This document shows, one piece after another, positions 5,638 through 60,607 of a DNA stretch of 64,000 bases. Numbering within the stretch: the stretch's first letter is position 1; each line of letters begins with the position of its first letter. Location: positions 2,560,001-2,624,000 of the forward strand of contig OZ242008.1 in the NCBI GenBank assembly GCA_965204735.1. The letters run 5' to 3'. The stretch is from Longimicrobiales bacterium (GTDB lineage Bacteria > Gemmatimonadota > Gemmatimonadetes > Longimicrobiales > Gaopeijiaceae). A program made the translations under genes and the position numbers. The notes beneath the pieces were generated by a model. It did no database searches. It was not told where the DNA came from and saw only the letters and a list, made by a program, of their open reading frames with translations.

Positions 5638-7997
5638 GCTGGCTGGCTTGGTCTCCACGGCGGAGAGGGTCCAGCCGTCGGAGTCGCAAGGCCTTGGGCA
5701 GGGCCGGCTTCGCACGGGCGTCGTGGGGCGCGTCGCGCCCGTGGGTGGCCCTCGCGGGGCTGGCGATCGCCGTACCGGCTCTCGGCCAGCGGCCTCCTCC
5801 CGTCGCGGGCGAAGGCGACGCTTGCCTCGACGCTTATCCGGACCAGGTCGCCCACGGGTTGGTCGAGGGCGCAAAGGGGCGGCTCGGCTCGGCGCCCGGC
5901 TCCTGGACGGCCCGCCTGCACGGGCAGCGAAGGGCGGAGCTCGTAGCGGGCCGTCGCAGCCACGTCTTGCAGGACGTTCGCTGGGCCGCCCGGGTGCGGT
6001 GGTCCAGCAGGGCGTCGTCGGTCGTCCGGCTCGAGGGCCGGTGGGTCCGCCACCCCGCGCTGTCCGACGCCGACTCGGTCCTCGCCCGGCAAGTGGCAGA
6101 GCGTCCGCACGGGAATCCGTTCCGCTTCGGACTCCGGCAACTCGAGGCGCTGATGGCGCTGGATTCCGTCGAAACGGCCTCGGTGGTCACGCCGCTGGAC
6201 ACGGGGGCCGAGTGCTTCTACCGCTACCGCTCGGGCGACACGGCCTCGGTGACGCTTCCGGCGGGAGAGATCGTGCGGACGGTGGCCGTGACCGCCATGC
6301 CCCGCTTCCGCAGCATCCGCTTCCTGGCGTCCACGATGTGGATCGAGCCGGAGAGCCACGGAGTGGCCCGGGTTGCGTTCGCTCCGGCCAAGCAGATCGA
6401 CCGCGAAACGACCTTCCGCCTGTGGAGCGCGGACGGATGGACCCCGGGGATCGACGTCGACTTTCGGGAAGGGCCGGCAGACGTGGACTCGGTGGGCGGA
6501 ACGCGCCGGCCCAGTGGAAGCAGGACGGGAGCCCGCGGCCTGGGCCGGCTGCTGAACGCCGGACTGAACCGGGCCCTGCCCCTGATCGAGTACCCGATCT
6601 CGTCGGTCGTCGTGGACTACTCGCTCTGGCAGTCTCGGTGGTGGCTGCCTCGGTCCCTGACGTTGACGATGCATCAAGCCCTGGTCGAGGATCAGAGTTT
6701 TCTTCTGGACTGGGATCAAGCGCCGCCGGAGATGCACGTCCGCTTCTCCACCCAGACGGCGTTCGAGATCGAGGAGGTGAAGGAGGCGGACGCGATTCCG
6801 TCGACGCAGCTGGTCGCGCGATGGAAGGCGCCTACGGACAGCGTGCTCGCAGCGTCCGGAGACGAAGGGGCCGTCCTCGTCGTGCCCAGCGAGCTGGACG
6901 TCGCTTCGCCAGACGAGCTCTTCCTGCCCGTCTCGTGGAACCCCGCCCCCCACGCGCCCGGCGGGGCACTGGACCAACTGGCGTCCGAGCTGGCGCGGAT
7001 CGAGGTCGGCGGGGGCGACGGGGGCGACGACGCCGAAGCGAAGGCCGCGAACGAGCCGAGTCCATGGTTCTTCGAGCCCCCGCTGCTGACCCTTCGGCTG
7101 CTGTCCTACACTTCCGCGCGGGGAGTGGTGGTCGGGACGCGCCTCTGGCGACGCGCTTCGTGGGGACGTGCTTCTCTCTCGGCCAGCGCGGGCACTCGCC
7201 GAGCCGAGCCGAGCGTCTTCCTGTCCTTCGACGCCCGCTTCCCGACTTGGCGGCTTCAAGCGTCCGCGTACCACGACTACCGGTTGACGAGCGTTGCGGC
7301 GAGCGACGCCTCGACGGCCCCCGCCGCCGATCCGATCTGGTACGCCGCCGACGGGGTGCGCGTCCGGCTGTCGCCGGCCCGGCGCAACCGCCAGTCCACT
7401 TCGCTGAGCCTCTTCGCCGAACGCCACGACGAGTACGGTCCTGCCGCCGTGCGGGCAGGAGCCACGGCGGCGTGGAAGCCGTGGTGGGGCGGCTCGGGAG
7501 GCACTCGCTCCCGGCTCGTCCAGGGCGGCGCGGAGCTCTCCGCTCGGGGAACGCTCGAAGAGGACCCGTCGCTTCGGGCCGCCGCGACCGCCACCGCGCT
7601 CCTCTTTGCGAGCCGGCGCGCTTCCCTGGGCTTGGAAGCCGGCGCCGCCCGCACCTGGGGCGGCCCGCGCCGCACCGACCCATGGCTCTTGGGCGCCGCC
7701 GACGGGCGATGGTTCCGCGGACGGACGGCGCAGGGCTTCGCCGGACGGACGGCGGTGCGCGGTCGCGCCGACCTCCAGCTCCGGGTTCGCTTTGCGCGGC
7801 TGTCGGTCTTTGTCGACTGGCTCCGCGCCTGGCGCGAACAGCCCCCTGGCGACGGGACGTCCTTCCTCTCGGCGGGCGCGGGCGTCTTCCTGCCCGGCGG
7901 CCTTCGGATCGACCTGGCTCGGGAGTTCCCCGCGGCCGGCGATGCACCGGTGGACGCCAAGTGGCGCCCCTACGTCAGCATCGACACGGCGTTCTGA
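5574..7997 (+). CDS. Hypothetical exported / probable outer-membrane beta-barrel protein (start uncertain)
   Basis: 807-aa ORF; hydrophobic signal-like stretch WVALAGLAIAVPALG; amphipathic beta-strand C-terminal half ending in Phe (SIDTAF). Confidence 0.65.
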   Translation: MAARTSSRTPRQGSDARGRPLGWLAWSPRRRGSSRRSRKALGRAGFARASWGASRPWVALAGLAIAVPALGQRPPPVAGEGDACLDAYPDQVAHGLVEGAKGRLGSAPGSWTARLHGQRRAELVAGRRSHVLQDVRWAARVRWSSRASSVVRLEGRWVRHPALSDADSVLARQVAERPHGNPFRFGLRQLEALMALDSVETASVVTPLDTGAECFYRYRSGDTASVTLPAGEIVRTVAVTAMPRFRSIRFLASTMWIEPESHGVARVAFAPAKQIDRETTFRLWSADGWTPGIDVDFREGPADVDSVGGTRRPSGSRTGARGLGRLLNAGLNRALPLIEYPISSVVVDYSLWQSRWWLPRSLTLTMHQALVEDQSFLLDWDQAPPEMHVRFSTQTAFEIEEVKEADAIPSTQLVARWKAPTDSVLAASGDEGAVLVVPSELDVASPDELFLPVSWNPAPHAPGGALDQLASELARIEVGGGDGGDDAEAKAANEPSPWFFEPPLLTLRLLSYTSARGVVVGTRLWRRASWGRASLSASAGTRRAEPSVFLSFDARFPTWRLQASAYHDYRLTSVAASDASTAPAADPIWYAADGVRVRLSPARRNRQSTSLSLFAERHDEYGPAAVRAGATAAWKPWWGGSGGTRSRLVQGGAELSARGTLEEDPSLRAAATATALLFASRRASLGLEAGAARTWGGPRRTDPWLLGAADGRWFRGRTAQGFAGRTAVRGRADLQLRVRFARLSVFVDWLRAWREQPPGDGTSFLSAGAGVFLPGGLRIDLAREFPAAGDAPVDAKWRPYVSIDTAF

Positions 7998-8289
7998 CGC
8001 GGGAAGCGCAAGCTCATCGGCTTCGGGTACTCCCGGTCCAGGCGCGCCGGCGAGCTTCGGCACGCCTTGCTCACGGGACGCGCGGGGGTTCTCCGGGCCA
8101 GCCCGGAGGAGACGATGGGCCAGCCCGGAGGAGACGAAAAAAAATCTGTCCCATCCAGCCATGGAAATGGCGCATCCTCGGTGAGACACTGAGGACCAGG
8201 GCCGGAGACCGTCCCGGCCAGCTTCGGGGGAACTCCGTCCGCGACGCCTCCGAAGCGCCTCTCGTCTCGGACGCAACGGAGCCGCCGCC

Positions 8290-9339
8290 ATGGACCCCTC
8301 CACCAACGAACCGCCCACTCTCACCAAGCCGGAACGCCGCCGCCACGACCAGAGCTACAAGCGCCTCTTCAACACGACGGGCGGCGGCGTGGCCCTCGTC
8401 CGCGATCTCGCGGCCATGGGCTGGGCCGACGAGTTCGACCTGCCGGCCGCCGACCCCTTCCCCACCGAGACCGTGGGCCCCGACCTGCAGCACCGGCTCT
8501 GCGACTGCGCGTGGCGCGTCCGGTTCAAGGACGGTCGATCGGCGGTCCTCCTCTTCGAGTTCCAGTCCTCGGTCGATCCGGGCATGGTCCTCAGGACGCT
8601 ACGCTACACCGAGGCCGCCTACACGGTGCTGCACACGCTCGAGCGCCAGCGCGACCCCGACGGCGCCATGCCCCTCGTGCTCTCGTTCGTCGTCTACACC
8701 GGCACGAGGCCATGGACGGCCGAGACGACGCTGGCCGGGCTGGCCGGCAGGGAGGAGCCGTCGCCGGTCGTGGCACGGGCGGTCGCTGGCTTGGCGACCA
8801 CTCACGGCTACGGGCTGCTTGACTTGCGGTCGGCGCTGGCGCAAGGGTTGCTTCCCAAGGAGAGCGTGCTGGGCTGGGTCGCGGCGCTGGAGGAGGACCC
8901 GTGGACGAACTTTCCGGCGGTGCACCAGAGCATGGCGGAGCAGTGGGCCGGCCCGGACTATCTTGCAGAGCGGCAGGCGTTCGCGGACTGGACGGACGAG
9001 CGGCTGCGTGTGGTGGGGGTGCCGGAGGAGGCACGTCAGGACATCGTGGAGCAGATCATCCAACCGAAGGAGGAGGAAGAGATGGGCCAGACCTATGCGG
9101 AGTGGGCGGAGGGCCACCGGCAGCGGGGACTCGAGCAGGGGCGCGCGGAAGGTCGAGCGATCATGCTGCTGCGTCTGGCTTCGCGGCGGTTCGGGGCCCG
9201 GACGGCGCGACGGCTGGAGGAGCGGGTGCGCTCCATGAGCGCCGAGCAGCTGGCGCGGGTCGGGGACGCGGTCGTGGAGTGCGACACTGCCGAGGACTTC
9301 TTGGCCGTGGCCGGCGACGGCAACGCGGAGGGGCGGTAG
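8290..9339 (+). CDS. Rpn/YhgA-like recombination-promoting nuclease (PD-(D/E)xK) with DUF4351-like C-terminus, copy 1
   Basis: HDQSYKRLF, RLCDCAWRV...LLFEFQSSVDPGMVLRTLRY, VVYTGTRPW, and tail GLEQGRAEG...LLRLASRRFG. Confidence 0.85.
   Translation: MDPSTNEPPTLTKPERRRHDQSYKRLFNTTGGGVALVRDLAAMGWADEFDLPAADPFPTETVGPDLQHRLCDCAWRVRFKDGRSAVLLFEFQSSVDPGMVLRTLRYTEAAYTVLHTLERQRDPDGAMPLVLSFVVYTGTRPWTAETTLAGLAGREEPSPVVARAVAGLATTHGYGLLDLRSALAQGLLPKESVLGWVAALEEDPWTNFPAVHQSMAEQWAGPDYLAERQAFADWTDERLRVVGVPEEARQDIVEQIIQPKEEEEMGQTYAEWAEGHRQRGLEQGRAEGRAIMLLRLASRRFGARTARRLEERVRSMSAEQLARVGDAVVECDTAEDFLAVAGDGNAEGR
9082..9339 (+). CDS. Putative internally initiated small C-terminal protein (Rpn-S-like antitoxin), 85 aa
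   Basis: AAGGAGGAGGAAGAG directly precedes in-frame ATG 9082 (MGQTYAEW); an equivalent RBS is present in copy 2. Confidence 0.55.
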   Translation: MGQTYAEWAEGHRQRGLEQGRAEGRAIMLLRLASRRFGARTARRLEERVRSMSAEQLARVGDAVVECDTAEDFLAVAGDGNAEGR

Positions 9340-9495
9340 CGGACGGCGGCGACGCCAAGCCGTCGCTTCCCGAGCACTGGCCAATGACGACAGGGGCTGC
9401 ACCGATGGGCAGAACCCAACGCTCGCCCAGCCCGGTGGTGGGCCAGTGGCAGCTGGGGGCGTCCCAAGCTCGCCGGCGTCGCGTGCAACCTCTTC

Positions 9496-11106
9496 CTACT
9501 CCCATTCGATCGTCGCCGGCGGCTTGGAGCTGATGTCGTAGGCCACCCGGCCGACGCCCTTCACTTCGTTGATCAGGCGGGTGGAGACGCGGGCCAGGAA
9601 CGCAGGATCGAAGGGGTACCAGTCGGCGGTCATGCCGTCGCGGGAAGTCACGGCCCGCAGCGCGACCACGTTCTCGTAGGTTCGAGCGTCTCCCATCACC
9701 CCCACCGACTGCACGGGCAGGAGGACCGCGAACGCCTGCCATATCTCGTCGTAGAGGCCGGCGGCGCGTATCTCCTCCAGGTACACCTCGTCGGCGTGGC
9801 GCAGGACGCGCAGGCGGTCCTCGGTCACCGCGCCCAGGACCCGAATCGCCAGCCCGGGGCCGGGAAACGGATGACGTGCGATGAAGTTTTCGTGGAGCCC
9901 CAGGGCTCGGCCGACCTCGCGCACCTCGTCCTTGAAGAGTTCGCGGAGAGGCTCGATCAGGTCGAACGAAAACTCTTCGGGCAAACCGCCTACGTTGTGA
10001 TGCGTCTTGATCGTGGCCGACGGTCCGCGGACGGGCAGGGACTCGATCACGTCCGGATACAGCGTCCCCTGCACCAGTAAACGGGCGTTTCCGGCAGAGT
10101 CGCGGGCGACCCGCTCGAAGACGCGGATGAAGGTCTCGCCGACGATCTTCCTCTTCCGCTCCGGTTCTTCCGTCCCCGCAAGGGCCGCGAGGAACTCGGC
10201 GGAGGCGTCCACCGCCGTCAGGCGGATGCCCATGTGGTCGCGAAACATCCGTTCCACATCCCGGCGCTCGTTGCGGCGCATCATCCCCGTGTCCACGAAG
10301 ACGCACAGCAGCTGGTCGCCCACGGCCGTGTGGACCAGCGCCGCGGCCACCGACGAGTCCACGCCGCCGGAGAGACCGCAGAGGACTTGCTGGTCGCCGA
10401 CTTGCTCCCTGATCCGCTCCACCGCCTCCGCGACGAAGGCGCCCGACGTCCAGCTCGGGACGCACCGGCAGATGCGAAAGAGGAAGTTGGCGACGATCTC
10501 GCCGCCCCGGGGCGTGTGGGCGACCTCCGGATGGAACTGCACGCCGTGAAGGGGCCGGTCCACGGCGCGGAAGGCCGCCACCGGCAAGTCGGCCGTGGAC
10601 GCGGTGGCGACGAACCCCGGTGGGAGTTGGTCCACGTGGTCGCCGTGGGAGCACCACACCACGACGGCTTCCCCGTCGCCGCGGCCGTCGGCGCCGGCTT
10701 CGGACCCAGGCTCGCCCAGCAGGTCCTGCGCGCGCTCGTCGCCCGCCCCGAAGCCCGCGAAGAGCCCGTCCGCCTCGTGGACCCGGAGGTCGGCGCGGCC
10801 GTACTCGCGCCTGCCCGGCGCCACGGCGCCGCCCTCGGCCCGTGCGATCAGCTGCATTCCGTAGCAGATGCCCAGCACGGGGACGCCGAGCGCCAGCAGG
10901 GCCGGGTCCAGTCCCGGGCCCTCCTGCTCGTAGACCGACGACGGACCCCCCGACAGGACGATTCCCTTGGGCTCCCAGCGGCGCACCCAGTCGGCGGAGC
11001 GGGTGGGCGGGTGGATTTCGCAGTAGACGCGGGCTTCGCGGATGCGGCGGGCGATCAGCTGGGTGAACTGGGAGCCGTAGTCCAGGACGAGGACGCGGTC
11101 AGGCAT
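9496..11106 (-). CDS. guaA: GMP synthase (glutamine-hydrolysing)
   Basis: [57 protein letters not shown]. Start at ATG 11106. Confidence 0.97.
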
Positions 11107-33032: not shown

Positions 33033-36000
33033 TTACTTGAAGGTAATCGTGCCGGCAAGTCCGACGCGGCGTTCCGGGGGCTGGAAGCCGTCGGTCGCCT
33101 GCTCGCCGAAGAAGTCCATCACCAGGCGGAGGCCGGAGGCCTGCTGCTCGGCGGTCTCGCCGCCCAGCGTCGCCCACTGCGTCCCCACGTTCAGGCGGTA
33201 GCCGGCCGCGCCTTCGCGGCTCCAGCGGCCGAACGGCTTGAGCTGGCCGCCGCCGGGCAGCGCCAACCCGTAGCCGACCTCCATCGCCAAGCCGTCCGGC
33301 GCCCAGCCTCGTGCGTTCTGGGGCGCTCCGAAGCCGTGGGCGGACGGGAAGCCGTGGGTCGGGCCGGCGCCGGGACTCGCGGGACCACCTGGACCGGTGG
33401 TGCCGCCGTGGCCGGCTTGGTCGCCGCCGGCGGGCACGGCGCCGGGCTGCGCCGCCGGAGCCGGCGCGCCCAGGCCCGGCACGCCCGCGGTCCGCCACAC
33501 GTCGGCGCCGCCTTGCCACAGCGTCTGCGCTCCGCCCGAGGCATTGCCCCACGACGGCTCCAGCGAGAACGACAGCCCGCCGTCTTCGCGGCGGGGCTGG
33601 ATCCGCAGCGCCACGGCCGCGCCCCAATCCTTGAAGTTCCGGTCCTGGTGGATCAGCAGCATCCGGCCACGGGCGTCGAGGCTCAACCCGCTGCCTTCGT
33701 GGGTGAACCCCAGGTCGGCGCCCGCTTCGGCGCCCATCCCCGTCTCGGCGTCGCCCCGGTCGTAGCGACCGCCCACCTCGATGCGCGTCCGCATCGCGAT
33801 GCTGCCGCTCGTCCACTGCCCGCCCAGCTCGGGCGCCAGCCGCACACGCTGCGCGTCGGCCGTCACGGCAGCCACATGTCCGTTCGACGCGTCCGTCATC
33901 ATGCGCACGGCGAAGGCGTCGGCCTTCAGCGCCAAGCCGCCGACCAGCTTCTGGCGCACGCCCAGCGCGCCCATCCGCATCCGCAGGTCGGCGTCGTAGG
34001 TCGGAGGACCCACCTCGCCCACGTTGGCGGCGCCCATTCCCGCGCCCGCCAAGCCCCATATCCCGAAGCCGCCCTGGGACGACCAGCTCAGGTAGGGGTA
34101 GAGGCTGGTCAGGTGGGCCTTCGTCTTGCCCACGCCGTTGATCCCGCTCTCGTAGTTCGCCGCCACGTCGCTGCGCGAGCCGGCCAGGCCCATCAGGAAG
34201 CCCGAGCCGAAGCGGTAGTCCAGACCCACGTACGCCGAGCGGGTGCGGCCGTCCATGGCAAAGTCGTCTTCGGGGCGGCCCTCGAACTGGCCCACGTTGG
34301 CCTGGCCCCACAGCGTCCAGCCGGCCTGGGATGCCGTCTGCGAAGGGGCGGCGTCGGCGCCATCGGCGTCGGCGTTGCCCTGCTCGCCGCCCGAGCCGCC
34401 GAAGGAGAGCTGGAACGAGCTCCGGGAGCGGAGGTCGCGGCCCGTCAGCGGGCTGAACGCGATGCCGCCGCGCTCACGCTCGGCAGGCAACGCGCCCTCT
34501 TCCCGCTGACCCTGGTACGAGCCGCCTTGTCCGAGCGAGCCGCTCCCGGCGACGCCCATGCCGGTCGCGCCGTCGCCGAAGAAGATCGCCGCCAAGTCCA
34601 GCGTCCCGCCGGCGCTGCCGCCGGCCACGCCCGGATGCGTGATCTGGAACCCGAGCAGGCCCGTTGCGTCCCGCACCAGCGACTCGAGCCCGCAACGGCC
34701 CGAACCGGCGTGGGCCGCGGCCGTGCTGGCCTCGGCCGACTCGCCCGGGCCTTGGTCCGCGTCCGCGTCGCCAGCCGCGCCGCCGTCACCGAACGTGCGG
34801 GACGAGGCCGTGCCGCTGGACACGCCGCCCGAGCCACGGCCGCCGCCGAACGCGAGGCAGCTCAGCGAGCGCCCGCCCAGCTGCACGTGCGAACCGCCCG
34901 GCGAACCCGACGGCTCCAGACCCAACCGACCGCCGATCGTCTCGACCGTCTCCGTCCCCAGCGACCGTCCGAACGCCGCCAGCGTCAGCTTCAGCGCACG
35001 AGCCCGATCCGCACGCGACGCCGACACCGTCACGCTCGCCTGCTGCGTCGCCGTCAAGCCGCCCGCGTCCGTCGCCGTCACCGTCACCACCGTCGCGCCG
35101 ATCTCCCGCGGCGCCACCGACAGCCGCCCCGCGCCCGACACCGACGCCGCCGCCACGTCCGGCGACGACGACGCCACCACGTAGCTCAGCGCGTCGCCGT
35201 CCGGGTCACGGAAGTACTCGCCCAGACCCACCTCCCACGGCGCGCCGCTCACCTCGAGCACCGGCGGCGACAGCGATCCCACCGCCTCCGGCCCCTCGTT
35301 CACGTCCAGCAGCGTCACCACGACCCGCGCCTCGGCCGTCAGACCGCCGCCGTCCGTCACCCGCACCGTCAGCGCGAACTCCGGCGGACCGTCCTCGTAG
35401 TCCTCGCCGGCGCCCACGTAGCGCACCCGCCCGCTCGCCCCGTCCACATCGAAGCGGCCACGATCGCCCTGCGCCAAGCTGTACGTCAGCGCGTCGTCGC
35501 GGTCCGGGTCCGTCGCCTCGACCCGTCCCAGCTCCCGAGGCCCGCGCACGTTCTCCGCCAGATCGAACGCATATGCGGAGTCCACGAACGCCGGCGCCTC
35601 GTTCACGTCCAGCAGCAGCACCCTCACCTTCGCCACCGCCGCCAACCCAGCACGGTCCGTCGCCACCACCTCGAACTCCCAGCCATCAGGACCCGTCTCC
35701 GCGTCCTCGCCAGCGCCCACGTACCGCACCACGCCGCTCGACTCGCCCACGTCGAACAGCGCCGCGCCCGCGCCGCTCAAGCTGTAGCGCAGCGTGTCGC
35801 CAGCGTCCACGTCCGTCGCCTGCACTGCGCCGAGCTCCACCGGGCCCGCCACGTGCTCCGCCAACTCCCACTCCCAGATCGGCTCGACGAACACCGGGCC
35901 CTCGTTCTGGTCCTCGAGCGTCACCACCACTCGGGTCCGCGCTGTGAGGCCGCCTCGGTCCGTCGCCGTCACCTCCAGCTCCCAGCTGCCCGGACCCGTC

Positions 36001-39000
36001 TCCGCATCCTCGCCGGAGCCCACGTACCGCACCGCACCGCTCGTCGCGTTCACCTTGAACCGCTCGGCGTCGCCCGCCGTCAGCGCGTACGACAGCCAGT
36101 CGCCGCCGTCCGGGTCCGTCGCCCGCACCTCGCCCAGCAGCAGCGGACCACGCTCGTTCTCCGCCAGATCGAAGGCGTATGCAGAGTCGGCGAACGCTGG
36201 TCCCTCGTTCACGTTCGTCAGCGCCACCGCCACCAACGCCCGCGCGCTCGAACCCGCCAGGTCCGTCGCCGTGACTTCCAGCTCCCACGACTTCGGTCCC
36301 GCGCCCTCGTAGTCCTCCCCGCCGCCCACGTACCGCACCGCGCCCGTCACACTGTCCACGGCGAAGCGATCGGCGTCGCCCGCCGCCAGCCGGTACGTCA
36401 GCGTGTCGCCCTCGTCCAGGTCCACCGCCTCCACCACGCCCAGCGCCAGCGGCCCGGCAGCGTTCTCCGCCATCGCGAAGGCGTAGCGCTCGGCCGTGAA
36501 CACCGGCGCGTCGTTCACGTTCACCAGCCGCACCGTCACCGTCGCGTCGCCCGTCCGCTCCCCGTCGTCGGCCGTCGCGCGCACGATCATCACGAACTCC
36601 GAACGCGACTCCGCGTCCTCGCCCGTCCCCACGTACCGCACCTCGCCGGTGCGAGCGTCCACCTCGAAGAGACCCTCGTCGCCCGCCGCCAGCGAGTACG
36701 CCACCTCGCCGCCGAAGGGGTCGGTCGCGCTCACCGTCCCCACCACCACCGGCCCCGCCACGTCCTCCGTCAGCTCGAACTCGTACTCCGCGCGACCGAA
36801 CACCGGGTCCGTGCCCCCAGCCCCGTTCACCTGGTGCTCCTCCAGGTTCTCCACCTCGTGGCCGCTCAAGTCCAGCGTAGCCGCCATCGTGCCGCCCGCG
36901 ATCCGCAGCGCAGCGCCGCCCGTCGCAGTCAGCGCGTCGGCCGGGATGCTGATCCCGTCCTCGTCCCGGTCCGCAGGCTGCACCACGTACTCGAACACCA
37001 CCATCGGCGTGCCCGAACCCGACACGTAGCTCGCCTGGCGCACGGCCGTCCCGATCTCGATCGACAGCTGCGGCGCGCCCACCACCTCCACCGGCCTGCT
37101 GAACGTCACCGTCACGCGGATCACGCTGCTCGGACCGTACAGCCCGCTCGCCCCCGGCGTGCTCGTCACCGCCATCGCCATCACCGCCGGCACCGCCTCG
37201 ACCGTGCCGTCCACCTTGTCGTTCGCGGCAGCCGCGATCGCGTGGCTGCCCAACGCCAGCACCGCCGGACGTACCCCGTCCGCCGTGTTCACGATTGTCG
37301 CGCCGTTCAGCGTCAGCGCCGCAGCAGCCACGCCCACGCCGTCGGCATCGGCGTCCACACCGCCCGTCCCGCTGCCACCCGAGCCCGCGCCCTGCACGCG
37401 GTACGCGAACGACAGCGTCGCCGTGCCGCTGCCGCCGACGTAGCTCGCCTGCCGCGTCGCCGTGCCCACCGTCAGCGCCAGCTGCGGCGCGCCCGTCACC
37501 GTCACCGCACGGTCGAACGTCACCTGCACCTCGATCCGCTCGCCCAGGCCGTACGTGTCGCCGCTCTCCGGCGTGCTCGACACCGCGACGCCCGTCACCG
37601 ACGCGCCCGCCAGCGTGCCGTCCACCTTGTGGCCCGCAGCAGCGCTCAACGCATGGCTGCCCAGTCCCAACGCCGCCGCCGTCGAGCCGTCCCGAGCGTC
37701 GTTGATCGTCCCGCTGTTCAGCGCCAGCGCGCTCGCGCCCACCTCGATCCCGTCGGTGTCCGCGTCCGCAGCCACCACCGTGTAGCGGAACGTCAGCGTG
37801 TGCGTGCCCGTCCCGCTCGCGTAGTCCGCCTGCCGCGTCGCAGCGCCCACCGTCAGCGCCACCTGCGGCGTGTCCGTCACCGCCACGCGACGGTTGAACG
37901 TCACCTGAACCTCGATCTGCTCGCCCCGCGCGTACGTCGTCCCCACCGCAGGCGAACTTGTCAGCGACACGCCCGACACCGACGCCGCCGTGAACGTCCC
38001 GCCCGCAACCTTGTGCCCCGCGCTGTTCGTCACCGCGTGGCTGCCCAGCCCCAGAACGGCGTCCACCGTGCCGTTCGCCACGTCGATCGTCCCGCCGTTC
38101 AGCGCCAACGCGCTCGCGCCGATGCTCAGCCCGTCGGCGTCCACGTCCGCCGTCACCACGACGTACCGGAACACCAAAGACGCCGTGCCCGTCCCGCTCG
38201 CGTAGCTCGCCTGCTTCGTCGCAGCGCCGATCGTCAGCGCCAGCTGCGGCGTCCCCGTCACGTCCACCGCCTTGTTGAACGTCACCGTCGCGATGATCGT
38301 GTCGCCACGCTCGAACGTCGTGCCGACCGGCGGCGACGCAATCGACACGCCGCTCACGCCCGGCGGGCCCTGGCTCCCGTCCACGGCCTGGCCCGAAGCG
38401 TTCGTGATCGCGTGACTGCCCAGCCCCAGGCCCGCCGCCGTCGAACCGTCGCGAGCGTCCGAGATCGTACCGCCGTTCAGCGCCAACGCGCTCGCGCCGA
38501 TGCTCAACCCGTTCGCGTCCGAGTCGCTCGACTGCACCGTGTACTGGAACGTCAGCACTCGACCGCCCGCCCCCACGCTCGTCGCCGAATCGTACGCCGC
38601 CTGCCGCGTCTGGCTCCCGATCGTCAGCGCCAGCTGCGGCGCGCCCGTCACGCTCACGTGGCGGTTGAACGTCACCTCGACCTCGATCTCCTCGCTCAAC
38701 CCGTACGTGCTCCCGTCCGCCGGGCTGCTCGCGATCGACACGCCGCTCACCGACGCCGCCGTGAACGTCCCGCCCGCAACTCGCAACGCGCCGTGGTTGC
38801 TGATCGCATGATGCGCCAAGCTCAGCAACGCGTCCGTCGTCCCGCCCGCAACGTCGATCGTCCCGCTGTTCAGCGCCAACGCGCTCGCGCCCACGCTCAA
38901 CCCGTCCGTGTCCACGTCCGCCTGCACCACTACGTACCGGAACACCAGCGCCGCCGTACCCGTCCCCGATGCGTAGCCCGCCTGCCGCGTCTGCGTCCCA

Positions 39001-42000
39001 ATCGACAACGCCAGCTGCGGCGTGCCCGTCACGTCCACCTGCTTGTTGAACGTCACCGTCGCAACCACCGTGTCGCCGCGCTCGAACGTCCCGCCCACCA
39101 GCGGCGCAGCCACCGACAACCCCGCCACCCCCGGCGGTCCCTGGCTGCCGTCCACCTTGTGCGCCGCAGCGTTCGTCACCGCGTGCGACCCCAAGCTCAA
39201 CGCCGCAGCAGCAGAACCCGGACGCACGTCCGCAATCGTCCCGCCGTTCAGCGTCAACGCGCTCGCGCCGATGCTCAACCCGACCGTGTCTGTGTCCGCC
39301 GGTCGGACCGCGTACTCGAACACCAGCGTGTCCGCCTTGCTCGTCGCCGAATCGTAGGCCGCCTGCCGCGTCTGCGTCCCGATCGTCAGCGCCAGACGCG
39401 GCACGCCCGTCACCGCCACCGGTCGCCCGAACGCCACCTTCACCTCGATCGACTCGCCCAGCTTGTACGTGCTGTCCGCAGCCGGCGCGCTCGATATCGT
39501 CACCGCGCTCACCGCCGGCGTCGTGAACGTCCCGCCCGCAACCTTGTGTCCAGCGCTGTTCGTCACGGCGTTCGACCCCAACGCCAGCAGCGCGTCCAGC
39601 GTACCGCCCGCAACCTTGATCGTCCCGCCGTTCAACGCCAACGCGCTCGCGCCGATGCTCAACCCGTCGGAGTCCGCGTCGCCCGACGCCACAACGTACT
39701 GGAACGCCAGCGTGTCCGTGCCCGTCCCGCTCGCGTACTCCGCCTGCCTGGTCGCGCTCCCGATCGTCAACGCCAGCTGCGGCGTGCCCGTCACGTCCAC
39801 CGCCCGCGTGAACGCCAACGCCACCTCGATCGTCTCGCCGCGCTCGAACGTGTCGCCCACCGTCGGAGAACTGATCGACAGCGCCGTCACCCCCGGCGGA
39901 CCAACGCTCCCGTTCACCTTGTGCGCCCTCGCGTTCGATATCGCGCTCGAACCCAGTCCCAGGCTCGCCGCCGTCGATCCGTCCCGCGCATCGGCGATCG
40001 TACCGCCGTTCAGCGTCAGCGCGCTCGCGCCGATGCTGATCCCCGTCGAGTCCTCGTCCGTCGCCACCACCGTGTAGCCGAACGCCAGCGTGTTCGTCCC
40101 GCTCCCGCTCGCGTACGACGCCTGCCGCGTCTGACTCCCGATCCCCAAAGCCAGCTGCGGCCCGCCCGTCACCGTCACCGGGCGCGTGAACCCAACCTCG
40201 ACCTCGATCACCTCCGTCCGTCCGTAGATGCTGTCGCTCGACGGAGCGCTCGCAATCGTCACGCCGCTCACCGCCGCAGCCGTGAACGTCCCGCCCGCAA
40301 CCTTGTAGTTCCCGTTGTCGGTGACGTAGTGATCGCGCAGGCTCACCACCGCGTCCGTCGTACCGCCCGACACGCGGATCGTCCCGCCGTTCAGCGCCAG
40401 CGCGCTCGTGCCGATGCTGATCCCCGTCGAGTCCTCGTCCGCCGTCACCACCACGTACCGGAACACCAGCGTGTCCGTCCCCGTGCCCGCAGCGTAGCTC
40501 GCCTGCTTCGTCGCGCTCCCGACCCCCAGCGCCAGCTGCGGCGTACCCGTCACCGCCACCGACTTGTTGAACGCGACCTTCACCTCGATCGTCTCGCCAC
40601 GCTCGAACGTGTCGCCCACATGAGGCGAGCCGATCGCCAACCCCGTCACACCCGGCGGTCCGAGCGCGCCGTCCACCTTGTGCGACGCCGCGTTCGTGAT
40701 CGCGCTCGATCCCAGTCCCAAGCTCGCCGCCGTCGAACCGTCCCGAGCGTCGTTGATCGTGCCGCTGTTCAGAGCCAACGCGCTCGCGCCAACGCCGATC
40801 CCGTCCGCGTCCGCGTCCGCCGCCACCACCTCGTAGCCGAACGTCAGCGTCGCCGTCCCGCTCCCGCTCGCGTACTCCGCCTGCCGCGCCGCAGCCCCCA
40901 CCGTCAATGCCAGCTGCGGCGTGCCCGTCACGTTCACCGACCGCACGAACGTCACCTCGACCTCGATCTCCTCGCCCAGACCGTACGTGTCACCGCTCGA
41001 CGGAGCACTCGAGATCGTCACGCCGCTCACCGACGACGCCGTGAACGTCCCGCCCGCTACCTTGTGCCCCGTGCTGTTCGTCACCGAGTGCGTGCCCAAC
41101 CCCAAAGTCGCGTCCAGCGTGCCGCCCGACAGCCGGATCGTCCCGCTGTTGAGCGCCAATGCGGTCGTCCCGATGCTCAACCCGTCCGCATCCACGTCTG
41201 CAGTCACCACCGTGTACTGAAACACCAGTGCCGTCGTGCCCGTGCCGCTCGCGTACGACGCCTGCCGCGTCTGCGAACCGATCCCCAGCGCCAGCTGCGG
41301 CGTACCCGTCACGTCCACCGCACGGTTGAACGTCACCGTTGCCGCAATCACGTCGCCACGCTCGAACGTGTCGCCCACGGGCGGGGACGCGACGGCCAAG
41401 CCCGTCACGCCCGGCGGCCCCTGCGCGCCGTCCACCTTGTGCGCCGCAGCGTTCGCGATCGCGTAGCTCCCCAGGCCCAGGCCCGCAGCCGTCGAACCGT
41501 CGCGAGCGTCCGAGATCGTACCGCCGTTCAGCGCCAACGCGCTCGCCCCGATGCTGATCCCGTTCGCGTCCGCGTCCGCCGCCACCACCGCGTAGCCGAA
41601 CGTCAGCGTCTTCGTCCCCGTCCCGCTCGTGTACTCCGCCTGCCGCGTCTGCGAACCGATCGTCAGCGCGACCTGCGGCGTGTCCGTCACCACCACGCGA
41701 CGGTTGAACGTCACCTCGACCTCGATCCGCTCCGTCCGGCCGTACGTGCTGTCGCTCGCCGGAGCGCTCGATATCGACACGCCCGCTACCGTCGCCGCCG
41801 TCAACGTACCCCCAGCCACCTTCCGGCCCGAATGGTTCGCTATCGTCCGCCCCGTCAAGTCCAGCAATGCGTTCACCGTCGTCTGCTGACGCCTGACCGT
41901 GCCACCGTTCAGCGTCAACGCGCCCGCGTCCACGCTCAACCCGTCGGCGTCCACGTCCGCCTGCACCACCGTGTACTGGAACACCAGCGACGGCGTGCCC

Positions 42001-45000
42001 GTGCCGCTCGCGTATGCCGCCTGCCGCGTCTGCGAACCAATCCTCAACGCCAACTGCGGCGTGCCCGTCACGCTCGCCGGACCGCTGAACACCACGACCG
42101 CGCGAATCGTTTCGCCGCGCTCGAACGTGTCGCCCACCACCGGAGCGTCTATCGTCAACCCCGTCACATACAGCGCGTTGCCCGCCACCTTGTGCGCCCC
42201 AGCGTTCGTCACCGCGTTCGACCCCAACCCCAGGCTCGCCGCCGCCGTCCCGCCCGCCAGCACGATCGTCCCGCCGTTCAGCGCCAGCGCCGTCGAGTCC
42301 ACGCTGATCCCGTCCGCGTCCACGTCCGTCGCCACCACCGTGTGCCGAAACGCCAGAACGTCCGTGCCCGTCCCGCTCGCGTACGACGCCTGCACCGTGT
42401 CGCTCCCGATCCGCAACGCCAACCGCGGCGTGCCCGTCACCGTCACCGCCCGATCGAACGCCACCTCCACCTCGATCACGTTCCCCGCCGCATACGTCGA
42501 GTCCGGACCCGCGTCGCTCGTTATCGTCATGCCGCTCACGCCCGGCGCCGTCTCCTTGCCACCGTCCACCTGGAACAGCACGGAGTTCGCAAAGTTCCAC
42601 GGCGACAAAGACAGGTTCGCGTCCCCCGTCGTGCCCTGCCGCCGGATCGTCGACCCCGACGGCAACGTCAGCGCGTTCGCCCCGATGCTGATCCCCGTCG
42701 AGTCCCTGTCCGCCGCCACCACCGTGTAGCAGAACACCACGATCGTCTCGCCCGACTTGTCGCAGTACGACGCCTGCCGCGTCTGCGAATCGATCCCCAG
42801 CGCCACACGCGGCGGCTGCGCACCCGCTTCCACGTCCACCGCCACGTTGAACCCGACGCCCACCCGAATCACGTCCCCAAGCCCGAACACGCTGTCCGTG
42901 CTCGCGTACGAAAGCCCAGTGTTGTCAGCGTCCAAGAAGAACACGCTCGCCACTACAGGAACGTACGCGCCCCACACCTGGTGCGCCGCCGCGTCCGCGA
43001 TCGCGTGGCTCCCCAGCGCCAAGTACGCGTTCGTCGTGCCGCCCGATGCCCTGATCGTCCCGCTGTTCAGCGCCAATGCGCTCGCCCCGATGCTGATCCC
43101 CGTCGAGTCCCTGTCCGCCGTCACTACCACATATTGGAACACCAGCGAGTTCGTGCCCGTCCCGCTCGCGTACGCCGCCTGCCGCGTCAGCGTGTCGACC
43201 TCCAGAGCCACCTGCGGCACGCCCGTCACCGCCACCGTCGAGTCGAACGTCACCGTCACCTCCACCGTGTCCCCAGCGGCGTAGATGCTGTCAGCGCCCG
43301 CGTCGCTCGAAATCGCCAGCCCCGTCACCATCGGCAACCCCTGCGAGCCGCTCACCTTGTGCGTCGCCGCGTTCGCGATCGCGTGGCTCCGCAACCCCAA
43401 GTACGCGTTCACCGTGCCGGACCCCGCCCGCCTGATCGTCGTCCCCGCCGGCAGCGTCAGCGCGCTCGCTCCGATGCTGATCCCCGTCGTGTCCGAGTCG
43501 GCCAACTGCACCACGTAACGGAAGGTCAGCGAATCGCCGCCCGTCCCGCTCGCGTAGCTCGCCCGTCGCGTCTGCGTCCCGATCGTCAGCTCCAGCCGCG
43601 GCGTTCCCGTCACGTCCACGTTCTCGTTGAACACCAGTCCCGCCTCGATCGTGTCGCCCAACGCATACGTGCCGTCGCTCCCCGCGTTGCTCGCAATCGA
43701 CGCGCTCGTCACGTGAGGCACCGCCTGAGCGCCGTTCACCTTGTGCGCCGAGAGGTTGACGAGCGGCGTGAAGTCCAAGAACGCGTTCGCCGCGCCCGCC
43801 GGCGCTCCGGGCGTCCTGATGTAGTCGCTTCCGCCCACCGTCATGCTGTCGACGCTGAGCCCGTCCGCGTCCAAGTCGGCCAGCACCGGATTGTACCGCC
43901 AGTGAATGGTTCTCGTGCCAGGGTTGACGTTCTGAACGTAGCCCTCGCGGACATTCTCTCCAATCGTCAGCCACAGGCCCGAATTCGCCGTCGTAACCGC
44001 CGCATTAAACGTCCGATCGAACACCACGAAGAAGTCGATGATGTCGCTCATGGCCCACGTCTCGTCGGACCCCGCGCCGGTGGGCAACGTAACGCTCGCT
44101 ATCTTGGGCACTTCCCACACACGGTGCGCACGGTCGTCCGTGGCGACGTGGTTCCACAAGCTCAGGTACACGTCCGTGCCCGCCCTTCTGATCGTACCGC
44201 CGTTCAGCGTCAGAGCATTGCGCCCGTAGCTGATCCCGTTCGTGTCGTTGTCTCCCGGCGCCACCACGTAGTTGAACCTCAGCGTTGTCGTGCCCGTCCC
44301 CGACACGTAGCTCGCCTGCACCGTCGACGACATTATCAGCGCCAGCTGCGGCGTACCCGTCACGTCCACCGCTCGGTTGAACACGACCTCTATCGCGATC
44401 GTGTCCCCCTCCACGTAGATGCTGTCGGCGCCCGCGTCGCTCGTGAACGACGTGCCCGTCACGATCGTCGCGCCCGACGTCAGCACCTTGTGGGCCGCCG
44501 CGTTCGCCACAACGAAGTTCACTATCGACAGCGTCGCGTCCACCGCCGCGCCCGCCCTTCTGATCGTCCCGCCGTTCAGCCCCAGCGCACTCCCCCCGAT
44601 GCTCAACCCGTCCGAGTCCGCGTCGCCGCTCGCCACCACGTAGCGGAACGTCAGCGAATCCGTCCCCGTGCCGCCCGCGTAGCTCGCCTGCCGCGTCTGC
44701 ACGCCGATCCCCAGCGCCAGACGCGGCGTGCCCGTCACGTCCACGCTCTCGTTGAACACCACCGCTACTTGCACCGTGTCGCCCGCCGCATACGTGCTGT
44801 CCGTCCCCGCATCGCTCGTGATCGGCATCCGCACCACCGCCGGCGGCCCCGCCAAACCATCCACCTTGTGGGCCGCAGCTTCGGCGACCCTGTGGACCCG
44901 CAAGCCCAAGTACGCGTTCACGACGCTGCCAGCCCGCCGTATCGTCCCGCCGTTCAACGTCAGGGCGCTCGAGCCGATGCTGATCCCCGTCGAGTCGACA

Positions 45001-58063: not shown

Positions 58064-58078
58064 AATCTAGCTAGCTAG
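58064..58078 (-). promoter_or_regulatory. -10 box TAGATT upstream of hpf, overlapping a (CTAG)3 run
   Basis: The + strand reads ggaatctagctagctag; the same GGAATCTAG core occurs before hisS. Confidence 0.4.
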
Positions 58079-58129
58079 CCGCCTTTGGCCGGCGCTTGGG
58101 AAGCGACGGCTGGGCGTCGGCTCCGTCCA

Positions 58130-58459
58130 CTACCGCCCCTCCGCGTCGCTGCTGCCGGCCACGGCCAGGAACTCGTCGGCAGTGTCGCACTCCACGACCG
58201 CGTCCCCGACCCGCGCCAGCTGCTCGGCGCTCATGGAGCGCACCCGCGCCTCCAGCCGGCGCGCCGTCTGGGCCCCGAACCGCCGCGAAGCCAGACGCAG
58301 CAGCAAGACCGCTCGGCCCTCCGCACGCCCCTGCTCGAGCCCCCGTTCGAGCCCCTGTGCACGTCCTCGTTCGAGCCCCTGTTCACGTCCCCGCTCGAGA
58401 CCCTGCTCCAGGCCCCGCTGCCGGTGGCCCTCCGCCCACTCCGCATAGGTCTGGCCCAT
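58130..58459 (-). CDS. Putative internally initiated Rpn-S-like protein, 109 aa
   Basis: AAGGAGGAGAAAGAG precedes in-frame ATG 58459 (MGQTYAEW). Confidence 0.55.
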   Translation of the reverse strand: MGQTYAEWAEGHRQRGLEQGLERGREQGLERGRAQGLERGLEQGRAEGRAVLLLRLASRRFGAQTARRLEARVRSMSAEQLARVGDAVVECDTADEFLAVAGSSDAEGR

Positions 58460-59251
58460 CTCTTTCTCCTCCTTCGGTTGGATGATCTGCTCCACGATGT
58501 CCTGACGTGCCTCCTCCGGCACCCCCGCCACACGCAGCCGCTCGTCCGTCCAGTCCGCGAACGCCTGCCGCTCTGCAAGATAGTCCGGGCCGGCCCACTG
58601 CTCCGCCATGCTCTGGTGCACCGCCGGAAAGTTCGTCCACGGGTCCTCCTCCAGCGCCGCGACCCAGCCCAGCACGCTCTCCCTGGGAAGCAACCCTTGC
58701 GCCAGCGCCGACCGCAAGTCAAGCAGCCCGTAGCCGTGAGTGGTCGCCAAGCCGGCGACCGCCCGCGCCACAACCGGCGACGGCTTCTCCCTGGCGGCCA
58801 GCCCGGCCAACGTCGTCTCGGCCGTCCATGGCCGCGTGCCGGTGTAGACGACGAACGAGAGCACGAGGGGCATGGCGCCGTCGGGGTCGCGCTGGCGCTC
58901 GAGCGTGTGCAGCACCGTGTAGGCGGCCTCGGTGTAGCGCAGCGTCCTGAGGACCATGCCCGGATCGACCGAGGACTGGAACTCGAAGAGGAGGACCGCC
59001 GATCGACCGTCCTTGAACCGGACGCGCCAAGCGCAGTCGCAGAGCCGGCGCCGCAGGTCGGGGCCCACGGTCTCGGTGGGGAAGGGGTCGGCGGCCGGCA
59101 GGTCGAACTCGTCGGCCCAGCCCATGGCCGCGAGGTCGCGGACGAGGGCCACGCCGCCGCCCGTCGTGTTGAAGAGGCGCTTGTAGCTCTGGTCGTGGCG
59201 GCGGCGTTCGGGCTTGGGGAGATTGGGCGGTTTGCTGGTGGAGGGGTCCAT
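58130..59251 (-). CDS. Rpn/YhgA-like recombination-promoting nuclease, copy 2
   Basis: Near-identical to 8290..9339 but with 24 extra residues of G(L/R)E(Q/R)-type tetrapeptide repeats. Confidence 0.85.
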   Translation of the reverse strand: MDPSTSKPPNLPKPERRRHDQSYKRLFNTTGGGVALVRDLAAMGWADEFDLPAADPFPTETVGPDLRRRLCDCAWRVRFKDGRSAVLLFEFQSSVDPGMVLRTLRYTEAAYTVLHTLERQRDPDGAMPLVLSFVVYTGTRPWTAETTLAGLAAREKPSPVVARAVAGLATTHGYGLLDLRSALAQGLLPRESVLGWVAALEEDPWTNFPAVHQSMAEQWAGPDYLAERQAFADWTDERLRVAGVPEEARQDIVEQIIQPKEEKEMGQTYAEWAEGHRQRGLEQGLERGREQGLERGRAQGLERGLEQGRAEGRAVLLLRLASRRFGAQTARRLEARVRSMSAEQLARVGDAVVECDTADEFLAVAGSSDAEGR

Positions 59252-59356
59252 GGCGGCGGCTCCAGTGCGTCCGAGACGAGAGGCGCTTCGGAGGCGTCGC
59301 GGACGGAGTTCCCCCGAAGCTGGCCGGGACGGTCTCCGGCCCTGGTCCTCAGTGTC

Positions 59357-60607
59357 TCACCGAGGATGCGCCATTTCCATGGCTGGATGGGACAGATTTT
59401 TTTGTCTCCTCCGGGCTGGTCCGTCGTCGCCTCGGGGCTGGTCTGGAGGCCCCGTGCGTCCCATGAACTGGGCGGCTGAAGCTCCTCCGGCACCTGGACC
59501 GCCGCCGGCCGCTACCGATTCCAAGAGACCCTCGAACGCGTCCGCCGTCCGGTCCCAGGTGAAGGTCTCGGCCATCGCCCGGGCCGCCCGGCCCATGGCG
59601 TCTCTTGCGTCGGGCGGCAGCACGCGGGCCAGAGCCGCGGCCAGGGCGTCCACGTCGCCGTGGGGCACCAGCAGGCCCGTTTCCCCGTGGCGGACCGTCT
59701 CCCGCAGTCCCGGCGAGTCCGACGCAACGGTGGGAGTGCCGCACGCCGACGCTTCGACGCTGGCGATCCCCCAGCCCTCCTTGGGAGAGGCGAGGGCGTG
59801 CACCCACGACCTGGACAGCAGCTCCCGCTTCTCGTCCTCGGGGACGAAGCCCGCGAAGCGGACCCGGTCGCCCATGCCCAGCCCCGCGGCCAGCCGCTCC
59901 AGATCCTTCCGGGCGCGTCCCTTCCCCGCGACGACGACGTTGAGCGGCGTTCCCCTGTCCGTCAGCCGGGCCGCCGCGCGGAGCACCAAGTCCACCCGCT
60001 TGTACTTCTGGAGCCGGCCCAGGAAGACGACCGTGGGCTCGGGGAACCGCTTCGACGCCGGCCAGAGCCGATCGAGGTTCACGCCGTTGCGGACGACCTC
60101 GAAGCGGGACGGCTCCAGCCCCCTCCGGAGCAGGTCGTCCCGGGTGCTTTCGGAGACGGCGACGCAGGGAAGGCCCCGGTAGGCGGTCGGGACGACGCGC
60201 TCGAAGAGCCACGTTGCGCCGGCCAGAACCCAGTTGGCCTCGCGGAAGGCGGTGGCGCCGAAGAGGTGGTGCACCAGAAGGAGGCGAGCCGGCGCCCGGG
60301 TCCAGAGGGGCGCCAGAATGGGAACCTTGTTCAGGTCCTCCACCAGCACGTCGAATGGCTCGTCCGCCAGTCGGCGCTCGTACTCCAAGGGTCCGGCGAT
60401 GTTGAATGTGTAGCGGCGGCCCGCTCGGTGGACTCGAACGCCGTCCACGTCGGCCACCCGTTCGCACCTGGGCCAGCCCGAGCACAGCAGCGTGACCCGA
60501 TGCCCGCGCTGGACCAGGCGGCCGAAGACCTGGTGCAGGTGCTCCTCGGCGCCGCCCGCCGCCGGATTGAGGCGGTCCAGCCAGTTGACGACGAGGATGC
60601 GGAGCAT
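59357..60607 (-). CDS. Glycosyltransferase family 4 (GT-B fold)
   Basis: NPAAGGAEEH, FLGRLQKYKRVD, KEGWGIASVEASACGTP, ETGLLV. The C-terminus runs into the Rpn cassette leader. Confidence 0.92.
   Translation of the reverse strand: MLRILVVNWLDRLNPAAGGAEEHLHQVFGRLVQRGHRVTLLCSGWPRCERVADVDGVRVHRAGRRYTFNIAGPLEYERRLADEPFDVLVEDLNKVPILAPLWTRAPARLLLVHHLFGATAFREANWVLAGATWLFERVVPTAYRGLPCVAVSESTRDDLLRRGLEPSRFEVVRNGVNLDRLWPASKRFPEPTVVFLGRLQKYKRVDLVLRAAARLTDRGTPLNVVVAGKGRARKDLERLAAGLGMGDRVRFAGFVPEDEKRELLSRSWVHALASPKEGWGIASVEASACGTPTVASDSPGLRETVRHGETGLLVPHGDVDALAAALARVLPPDARDAMGRAARAMAETFTWDRTADAFEGLLESVAAGGGPGAGGASAAQFMGRTGPPDQPRGDDGPARRRQKNLSHPAMEMAHPR

Follow-up and report, generated by a model that had tools for sequence, protein, structure and literature searches.

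The window, a 64,000 nt stretch of DNA, contains two copies of an rpn gene in opposite orientation, each with non-coding sequence on both sides. The question raised by this locus is what kind of unit this is and how it came to be present more than once. The sequence-only reading had described a match between positions 8034..9384 (+) and 58085..59491 (-) that exceeds the open reading frame, and had viewed it as a discrete cassette, occurring twice, that might be an RNA-plus-nuclease module. The extended match is real (Table 1). Window positions 8034–9140 are 96% identical to 59501–58401 (minus strand) over 1107 nt, and positions 9124–9384 are 91% identical to 58345–58085 (minus strand) over 261 nt; an indel of 4-aa repeats divides the match into these two blocks. 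Position 9384 does mark the end of the match between the two copies, but it is too short as the right end of copy 1 because copy 2 stops there, and the unit extends approximately 77 nt further. The proposed contrast between an identical leader and a substituted ORF is weak, with 2 differences in 153 nt of leader versus 20 in 837 nt of ORF for this pair. Family-wide identities are 93.6% for the box and promoter, 96.6% for the 5' UTR and 95.7% for the ORF. Copy 1 is situated between an 807-aa ORF without a name and guaA, and copy 2 between a GT4 glycosyltransferase gene and hpf. Copy 2 is found directly before the GT4 stop codon, and thus the GT4 frame now reads into the rpn leader. Elsewhere in the window, positions 33033–46967 (-) encode a 4644-aa protein with cadherin domains.

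Table 1. Features of the two rpn units in the window.
Feature	Position	Strand	Basis
Copy 1 rpn unit, extent shared with at least one other copy (1432 nt)	8030..9461	+	Pairwise extension against the other 10 copies
Dispensable left arm; 22-nt tandem duplication (8095–8137) common only to copy 2	8030..8136	+	Flank alignment
Predicted competence-type promoter: A-tract 8137–8144, box 8148–8172, -10-like hexamer 8185–8190	8137..8190	+	Motif shared with uptake genes
Predicted 5' UTR with two short hairpins	8197..8289	+	Folding/covariation
RpnL copy 1, 349-aa PD-(D/E)xK nuclease	8290..9339	+	Pfam domains PF04754 and PF14261, both above threshold; aligned with RpnA of E. coli
Predicted internal antitoxin RpnS: AGGAGG, ATG at 9082, 85 aa, one 4-aa repeat	9068..9339	+	Analogy to PMC10400941
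Dispensable 3' tail, two hairpins	9340..9461	+	Flank alignment; solo tail remnants
Copy 2 rpn unit, directly before TAG of GT4 gene, GGCGGC on both sides	58080..59501	-	Empty site in G001, G002, G003; junctions
Promoter box of copy 2	59351..59404	-	Motif match
RpnL copy 2, 373 aa; predicted RpnS 58130–58459, 109 aa, seven 4-aa repeats	58130..59251	-	
Three CTAG in tandem at copy 2's right junction (stop codon of GT4, displaced)	58067..58079	-	
GT4 glycosyltransferase, reads 48 codons into the rpn leader	59357..60607	-	

The ORFs of both copies consist of Transposase_31 and DUF4351 domains, and the nuclease domain (PF04754) scores 43.9 and 46.3 bits against a cut-off of 21. RpnL residues D72, E90 and Q92 align with D63, E82 and Q84 of E. 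coli RpnA, whose catalytic roles are described in PMC5350276, and this D/E/Q triad is invariant in all ten full copies of the genome. An internal AGGAGG site and ATG for a small C-terminal DUF4351 protein are present in 11/11 copies. The 4-aa repeats start 15 residues past the internal Met, and their numbers across the 11 copies are 1, 3, 3, 4, 4, 5, 6, 7, 9, 9 and 14. Ten of the 11 ORFs are intact, and the pN/pS of the nuclease part is 0.53, which shows only moderate constraint. No solved structure is related by sequence, a single-sequence AlphaFold model has a pLDDT of 46.9, which is too low for use, and there is no NCBIfam match at 1e-10 and no PADLOC match. By analogy to the Rpn system of E. 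coli, RpnL is predicted to be a toxin and RpnS its antitoxin.

The genome (G000) is a single contig of 4.14 Mb with 69% GC, and it was compared with three congeners, G001, G002 and G003. The unit occurs in it not twice but 11 times with the same leader core, as 10 full copies and one that is internally deleted. These copies are 92.8–98.0% identical. They are dispersed over the region from 0.73 to 3.18 Mb in both orientations, and most have housekeeping genes as neighbours (trpD/lexA, coaX/groEL, recN, sucC, guaA, mmdA). More distant rpn genes are also present, and 31 rpn starts were scored in all. Tandem arrays of these distant genes are found at genome positions 2825039–2828717 and 3162424–3172557, with some members 5'-truncated or broken. 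A fragment of the repeat region is located at approximately 3182300, downstream of the internally deleted copy, and about eight AT-rich 11-nt repeats lie upstream of the 2.637 Mb copy (L025:3990–4110) and are absent at the orthologous site in three congeners. In G003, one rpn gene is followed after its stop codon by a stand-alone RpnS-like copy (L071), and the 3' tail of one subfamily has four GGGACA repeats, inverse to the GTCCC of the box (L047, L050, L053, L056).

The ends of the unit are not fixed, contrary to the notion of a discrete cassette. Aligned flanks reveal shared sequence for 19–126 nt upstream of a CAGCCAT anchor and 76–209 nt downstream of a 3' anchor; the invariant core begins at the A-tract, and the arms outside it are nested and ragged. 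Only about 24 nt of the leader are invariant in 11/11 copies. No dispersed copy carries a long stretch of donor flank. Solo remnants of the 3' tail are found at genome positions 2129601–2129649 and 349752–349796. Recombination has made the copies mosaic (64 informative sites, PHI-like p 0.002). The observation that terminal inverted repeats and target duplications are lacking holds family-wide: the end arms are not complementary (p 0.57–0.99), and 30 copies from three genomes display no systematic target-site duplication (own pairs versus permuted pairs, p 0.28; G000 alone, p 0.04). By its ends the rpn unit is not an insertion sequence; it is a bona fide member of the Rpn family. The ISNCY/ISPlu15 group has been linked to YhgA.

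Copy 1 alone has a 15/16 inverted match between positions 8045–8060 and 9463–9478 and a 16/20 direct match between 8009–8028 and 9465–9484. A hairpin spans its left junction, and the host arm of this hairpin recurs just past the right junction (8009–8060, 9463–9484). A copy-specific inverted match between the ends (own 7.27 versus cross-copy 6.18, p 0.004) is a weak lead, based on 3 of 11 copies and on windows chosen post hoc. Copy 1 is not an assembly artefact, because contigs of four other sequencing runs from four studies carry its joint to guaA. The joint to guaA is found in 4/4 of these other samples and that to the left flank in 2/4 (among the pieces listed), and none of the joints listed (15 of 51) skips copy 1. 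Copy 1 is real and is fixed in those four samples. Nineteen runs listed as containing the DNA come from sponge or marine metagenomes or from coded organisms, and no RNA run is listed for this stretch.

The sequence CTAG was also considered as a target. In G000, 5 of the 11 right junctions have CTAG within 12 nt, compared with 10% of gene ends (p 0.003 in a post hoc test), and rpn ends account for 3 of the genome's 11 tandem repeats that contain CTAG. An independent set gave 8/42 (p 0.057), or 6/42 (p 0.25) when two CTAGs belonging to the genes' own stop codons are subtracted. CTAG duplications occur at empty sites as well, so CTAG counts as no more than a weak lead. A search of the 4 genus genomes for an MjaI-type CTAG enzyme found none, and Vsr is present in 4/4. 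CTAG is depleted genome-wide (O/E 0.33), yet it is the commonest 4-mer in short tandem duplications (11 cases, 8.6 per 1000).

Comparison with the congeners shows filled and empty sites, as is seen with insertion sequences. At 8 of the 11 sites the flanks are adjacent and no rpn is present in at least one of the three congeners, and three sites are empty in 3/3 with the gene ends intact. The GT4-hpf site, which had been singled out as a place to look, is empty in G001, G002 and G003. The earlier proposal that gene and leader move together is supported. Both copy 1 and the copy at 1.514 Mb are at synteny breaks, with no rpn in the congener flanks examined, and no orthologous site exists for the 3.183 Mb copy. 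Conversely, 6 of 20 congener copies examined occupy sites that are empty in G000. Two sites, trpD-lexA and coaX-groES, are also filled in G002, the most distant congener, by G002-type copies, and the trpD-lexA junctions differ between G000 and G002. A quickly computed tree of 33 proteins groups the 10 full copies together (SH-aLRT 100) and sets them apart from the G002 and G003 expansions. The subfamily, searched at E 1e-30, is found in 3 of 41 genomes, all in this genus; G001 is without it. One G002 copy is directly downstream of comEC (L105, L208; G002:C1 2720028–2723006).

The leader, which had been proposed as the RNA part of the module, does not appear to be a distinct structured RNA on present evidence. 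Rfam gives no match in the window, shuffled sequences fold as well as the 5' UTR does (z -0.29), and covariation is slight (2 of 11 pairs). The conserved part is predicted to be a promoter box, upstream of the predicted transcription start, that is common to DNA-uptake genes. It consists of an A-tract, a 25-nt box and a -10 at fixed spacing. At two positions outside the search, A (+38, 44 sites) and T (+42, 46 sites) predominate among 53 non-redundant sites; their spacing is that of a sigma-70 -10 hexamer. An A-tract is at -5/-6. A consensus sigma-70 scan of positions 7900–9600 gave no promoters and no terminators; the -10 is degenerate. Other rpn paralogues do keep the leader core, including genes that share only about 30% identity with the rpn of the window. 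A leader pattern gave 0 matches in metagenome contigs; a related-locus search of genome contigs gave 1 locus from 52 candidates, and the rpn gene of a Longimicrobiales MAG, the one named relative obtained, carries the same box, which makes Gemmatimonadota a likely assignment for the genome.

Several searches link the box to genes of DNA uptake and recombination. Matrix 1, trained on 24 sites from congener loci, gave 41 matches above 17 bits in G000 and none in either control (reversed and complemented sequence). Of 29 matches above 26 bits, 19 are before rpn genes and 10 before other genes, five of which encode a type IV pilin, PilB, RecA, ComM and ComEA. The pilin site starts a pilin-pilMNOPQ-like operon, as read from the predicted proteins. 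The ssb box scores 22.7 bits and that of the dprA operon 19.6 bits (genome position 684975), the latter with the same arrangement in G001 and G002. Orthologous sites before pilin, pilB, ssb, comEA and comM are kept in G001 and/or G003, and the box is before recA in 4/4 genus members. In other genera it is found before yraN, comM, recA and comEA (G021), pilB (G012), and ssb and a DEAD-box (RecQ-like) helicase gene (G034), and before comM in 5/5 genomes of two other genera. An exact box pattern, which misses the variant of the window's own rpn subfamily, has 19, 15, 25 and 30 matches in the four genus genomes, is present in 6 of 37 others and has 0 control matches; 36 sites were retrieved for inspection. 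Conservation of the motif extends from the genus to some further genera within the family and order. It is not before all core uptake genes, as comEC and yraN are without it in G000. There is also no box before lexA, Ku or vsr in G000, and 19 of 24 recA upstream regions scored across the order are without it.

Competence-type sites in G000:C1 are at 1711799, 3953423, 2495386, 1886760, 1701324, 148822 and 684975 (L123, L124, L125, L127, L129, L132, L136). Six matches above 25 bits head genes of other or unknown kind that are neither rpn nor competence genes. The box is also present before other one-gene families: coiled-coil repeat genes in three genomes, one 23S_rRNA_IVP gene (G032) and one PDDEXK_3 gene (G028); the loci concerned are L122:1345–1902, L130:622–1968, genome position 1736797, L178, L186, L195, L200 and L201. 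Congeners also conserve it ahead of two further genes, one for a C39 peptidase and one unannotated but lipoprotein-like (L121:509–1225, L128:381–1046, L177, L180, L193), and these two are candidate new competence genes. An ECF sigma factor gene at genome position 3651926 was considered as the regulator and rejected; its own box is weak (9.6 bits) and scores less than 4 bits in 11/11 orthologues.

A second matrix was trained on 28 competence-gene sites alone, with no rpn sites. It scores all 11 rpn copies at 43–46 bits. At 14 bits or more it finds 23 of the 31 rpn starts, against a background of 34 of 2740 predicted genes, rpn included; four of the misses are 5'-truncated tandem repeats. For rpn loci from 9 other genomes, in two other genera, 22 of 26 score above 13 bits and controls at most 5. 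The promoter motif of rpn is therefore one held in common with uptake and transformation genes, and rpn is a predicted competence-regulon gene.

A parallel is found in E. coli, where the published competence motif is CRP-S (TGCGA-N6-TTCCA; PMC6728893), unrelated in sequence to the Longimicrobiales box. It is present within 2 mismatches in 5/5 K-12 rpn leaders, 6/9 competence genes and 8/35 controls, two of these eight controls sharing the site of a competence gene. Four of the five rpn matches have the same orientation, at -146 to -149. A seeded matrix separates the rpn leaders from controls (p 0.002); an unseeded motif search on the competence promoters settled on a shifted register and failed to separate them. 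The tie of rpn to a competence promoter probably holds in E. coli too. A 2009 Sxy microarray study is said to list yhgA-family genes as Sxy-induced; if it does, data for the link in E. coli have already been published. Among the papers listed by literature searches, none states an rpn-competence link. The main texts of PMC10400941, PMC5350276 and PMC4498929 make no mention of Sxy or competence, and those of the first two do not mention CRP.

The Rpn systems described in PMC10400941 and PMC5350276 are alike in the PF04754 and PF14261 domains, the catalytic D/E/Q, the internal RBS/ATG of an intragenic RpnS, variable 4-aa repeats, variable ends without TIR or TSD, and a downstream stand-alone RpnS, present here in the one congener copy noted above. 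The published genes are in tandem arrays with hitch-hiking, and no regulator is named; here they are dispersed, genome-specific and tied to a competence-type promoter. Of these two main Rpn papers, one leaves self-movement open and the other calls transposition highly unlikely and regulation unknown. The CRP-S/Sxy regulon of gamma-proteobacteria (PMC1635313, PMC6728893) likewise has one motif before pilin, pilB, comEA, comM, dprA, ssb and recA, but the motif is unrelated in sequence, and TfoX_N is found in 0/4 genus genomes. In toxTA of H. influenzae and hicAB of E. coli (10.1101/330480) the toxin is first, a competence promoter is upstream and there is a shorter internal antitoxin-only unit. 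These are single-copy RNases, whereas rpn here is a predicted DNase in many copies that is apparently dispersing. Insertion sequences spread by natural transformation (PMC12378983) are also one-gene units gained at intergenic sites, but rpn has no defined ends or TSD; the main text of that review does not mention Rpn. The tie of rpn to a competence-type promoter across many rpn subfamilies is new here, as is the motif itself. The competence regulons of Bacillota have ComX and SigH boxes, which are also unrelated in sequence to this box.

The best explanation for the observed copy number and dispersal, ragged ends, empty congener sites, genome-specific expansions and shared, retained box is that rpn is a selfish one-gene element that is expressed in competence and spreads at that time via its own cuts and microhomology repair. 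For this mechanism as a whole the chances seem about even, and its steps differ in strength. The box is very likely a competence-regulon promoter, and rpn is predicted to be expressed during natural competence because every copy keeps the box of the uptake and recombination genes. RpnL would then, with good probability, be induced with the competence regulon and otherwise be held in check by RpnS from its internal start. The next step is somewhat better than an even proposition: RpnL would cut the chromosome and leave 3'-OH ends at a time when the cell contains rpn-bearing DNA, from kin or a sister chromosome; short microhomologies would then allow rpn to be joined in, by end joining or template switching, with different ends each time. 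RpnA is reported to leave 3'-OH ends and to raise RecA-independent recombination (PMC5350276), and Ku is present in 4/4 genus genomes. Copies that lose the box could not seed new copies, which would set the box as the left limit and the stop codon as the right limit. Since the unit that is copied extends upstream of the predicted transcription start, copying via RNA is unlikely. Once inserted, the toxin-antitoxin pair would resist loss, and differing repeat numbers would make each copy require its own antitoxin. Several observations are against this mechanism. Copy 1 is fixed in four samples, so ongoing movement is not observed. Fragments taken up at random might bring donor flank along, yet no long stretch of it travels with any dispersed copy. 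The two sites shared with G002 and the mosaic copies also count against it. The boxless comEC, yraN, lexA and most recA upstream regions, the six stray matches and the pN/pS value are also against it, as are the statement in PMC10400941 that there is no evidence of autonomous transposition and the anti-phage activity shown there.

That anti-phage activity, together with the repeat-dependent specificity of Rpn in E. coli (PMC10400941), would fit a host-recruited gene instead. Rpn would be kept under a competence promoter to serve the cell, by aborting cells that import phage or foreign DNA or by aiding illegitimate recombination; the copies would arise via general duplication and repair that needs no Rpn, and would be kept by addiction and selection for varied repeats. 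Competence-regulated toxin-antitoxin systems exist (10.1101/330480), nearly all ORFs are intact, and the small CTAG duplications at empty sites imply that local rearrangement is common in the genus. We regard this as unlikely, although it is not far-fetched: several rpn subfamilies have expanded independently in three genomes at different housekeeping loci, on either side the unit ends no more than about 150 nt from the gene, one congener does without the subfamily, PADLOC gives no match and the flanks are mostly not defence genes. A smaller chance is given to the sites being old, with rpn lost from congeners and gene conversion within the genome keeping copies alike and making the nested, ragged edges. 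Gene conversion at old sites does contribute, because two sites are shared with G002 and the copies are mosaic; solo tails show that loss happens, and copy 1 is fixed. Against old sites as the whole account are the three sites empty in every congener with intact gene ends, the displacement by copy 2 of a GT4 stop codon that congeners keep, and the unlike trpD-lexA junctions.

The function of the box bears on these explanations as well. The presence of recA, ssb and the DEAD-box (RecQ-like) helicase among its genes, and its absence before comEC and yraN in G000, would also fit a general DNA-damage or starvation regulon, with rpn using the box as many mobile genes use SOS. This is improbable, as the box precedes pilin-pilMNOPQ, pilB, comEA, the dprA operon, comM and, in G021, yraN, i.e., genes of transformation (YraN and ComM cooperate in this process, PMC13663708), and lexA, Ku and vsr are without it. 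Least credible is the original suggestion of a discrete RNA-plus-nuclease element, taken here to mean one in which a structured RNA in the leader serves as guide or bridge. The leader does travel with the gene, and two 5' UTR hairpins recur across species, but the ragged ends, the lack of an Rfam match, the ordinary folding, a conserved part that is a promoter common to host genes, and G002 leaders that differ downstream of the box make it barely tenable.

If the selfish, competence-expressed reading of rpn is extended beyond this genus, rpn genes may be end-less selfish elements that plug into whichever competence promoter the host uses, this box in Longimicrobiales-like bacteria and CRP-S in E. 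coli, that cut the chromosome while DNA is being taken up, and that are copied from imported ssDNA by microhomology repair. This would be mobility without a transposase, borrowed from natural transformation; we offer it tentatively, and consider it more doubtful than not. If it is true, other box-bearing one-gene families (the coiled-coil repeat, PDDEXK_3 and four-helix-bundle genes) would act likewise. The probable sharing of a competence promoter in two unrelated phyla provides a condition under which rpn movement and expression can be tested. The motif exposes a putative competence-type regulon in an uncultured marine lineage, and rpn may be a genetic parasite for which natural transformation would be something to exploit and not to block.
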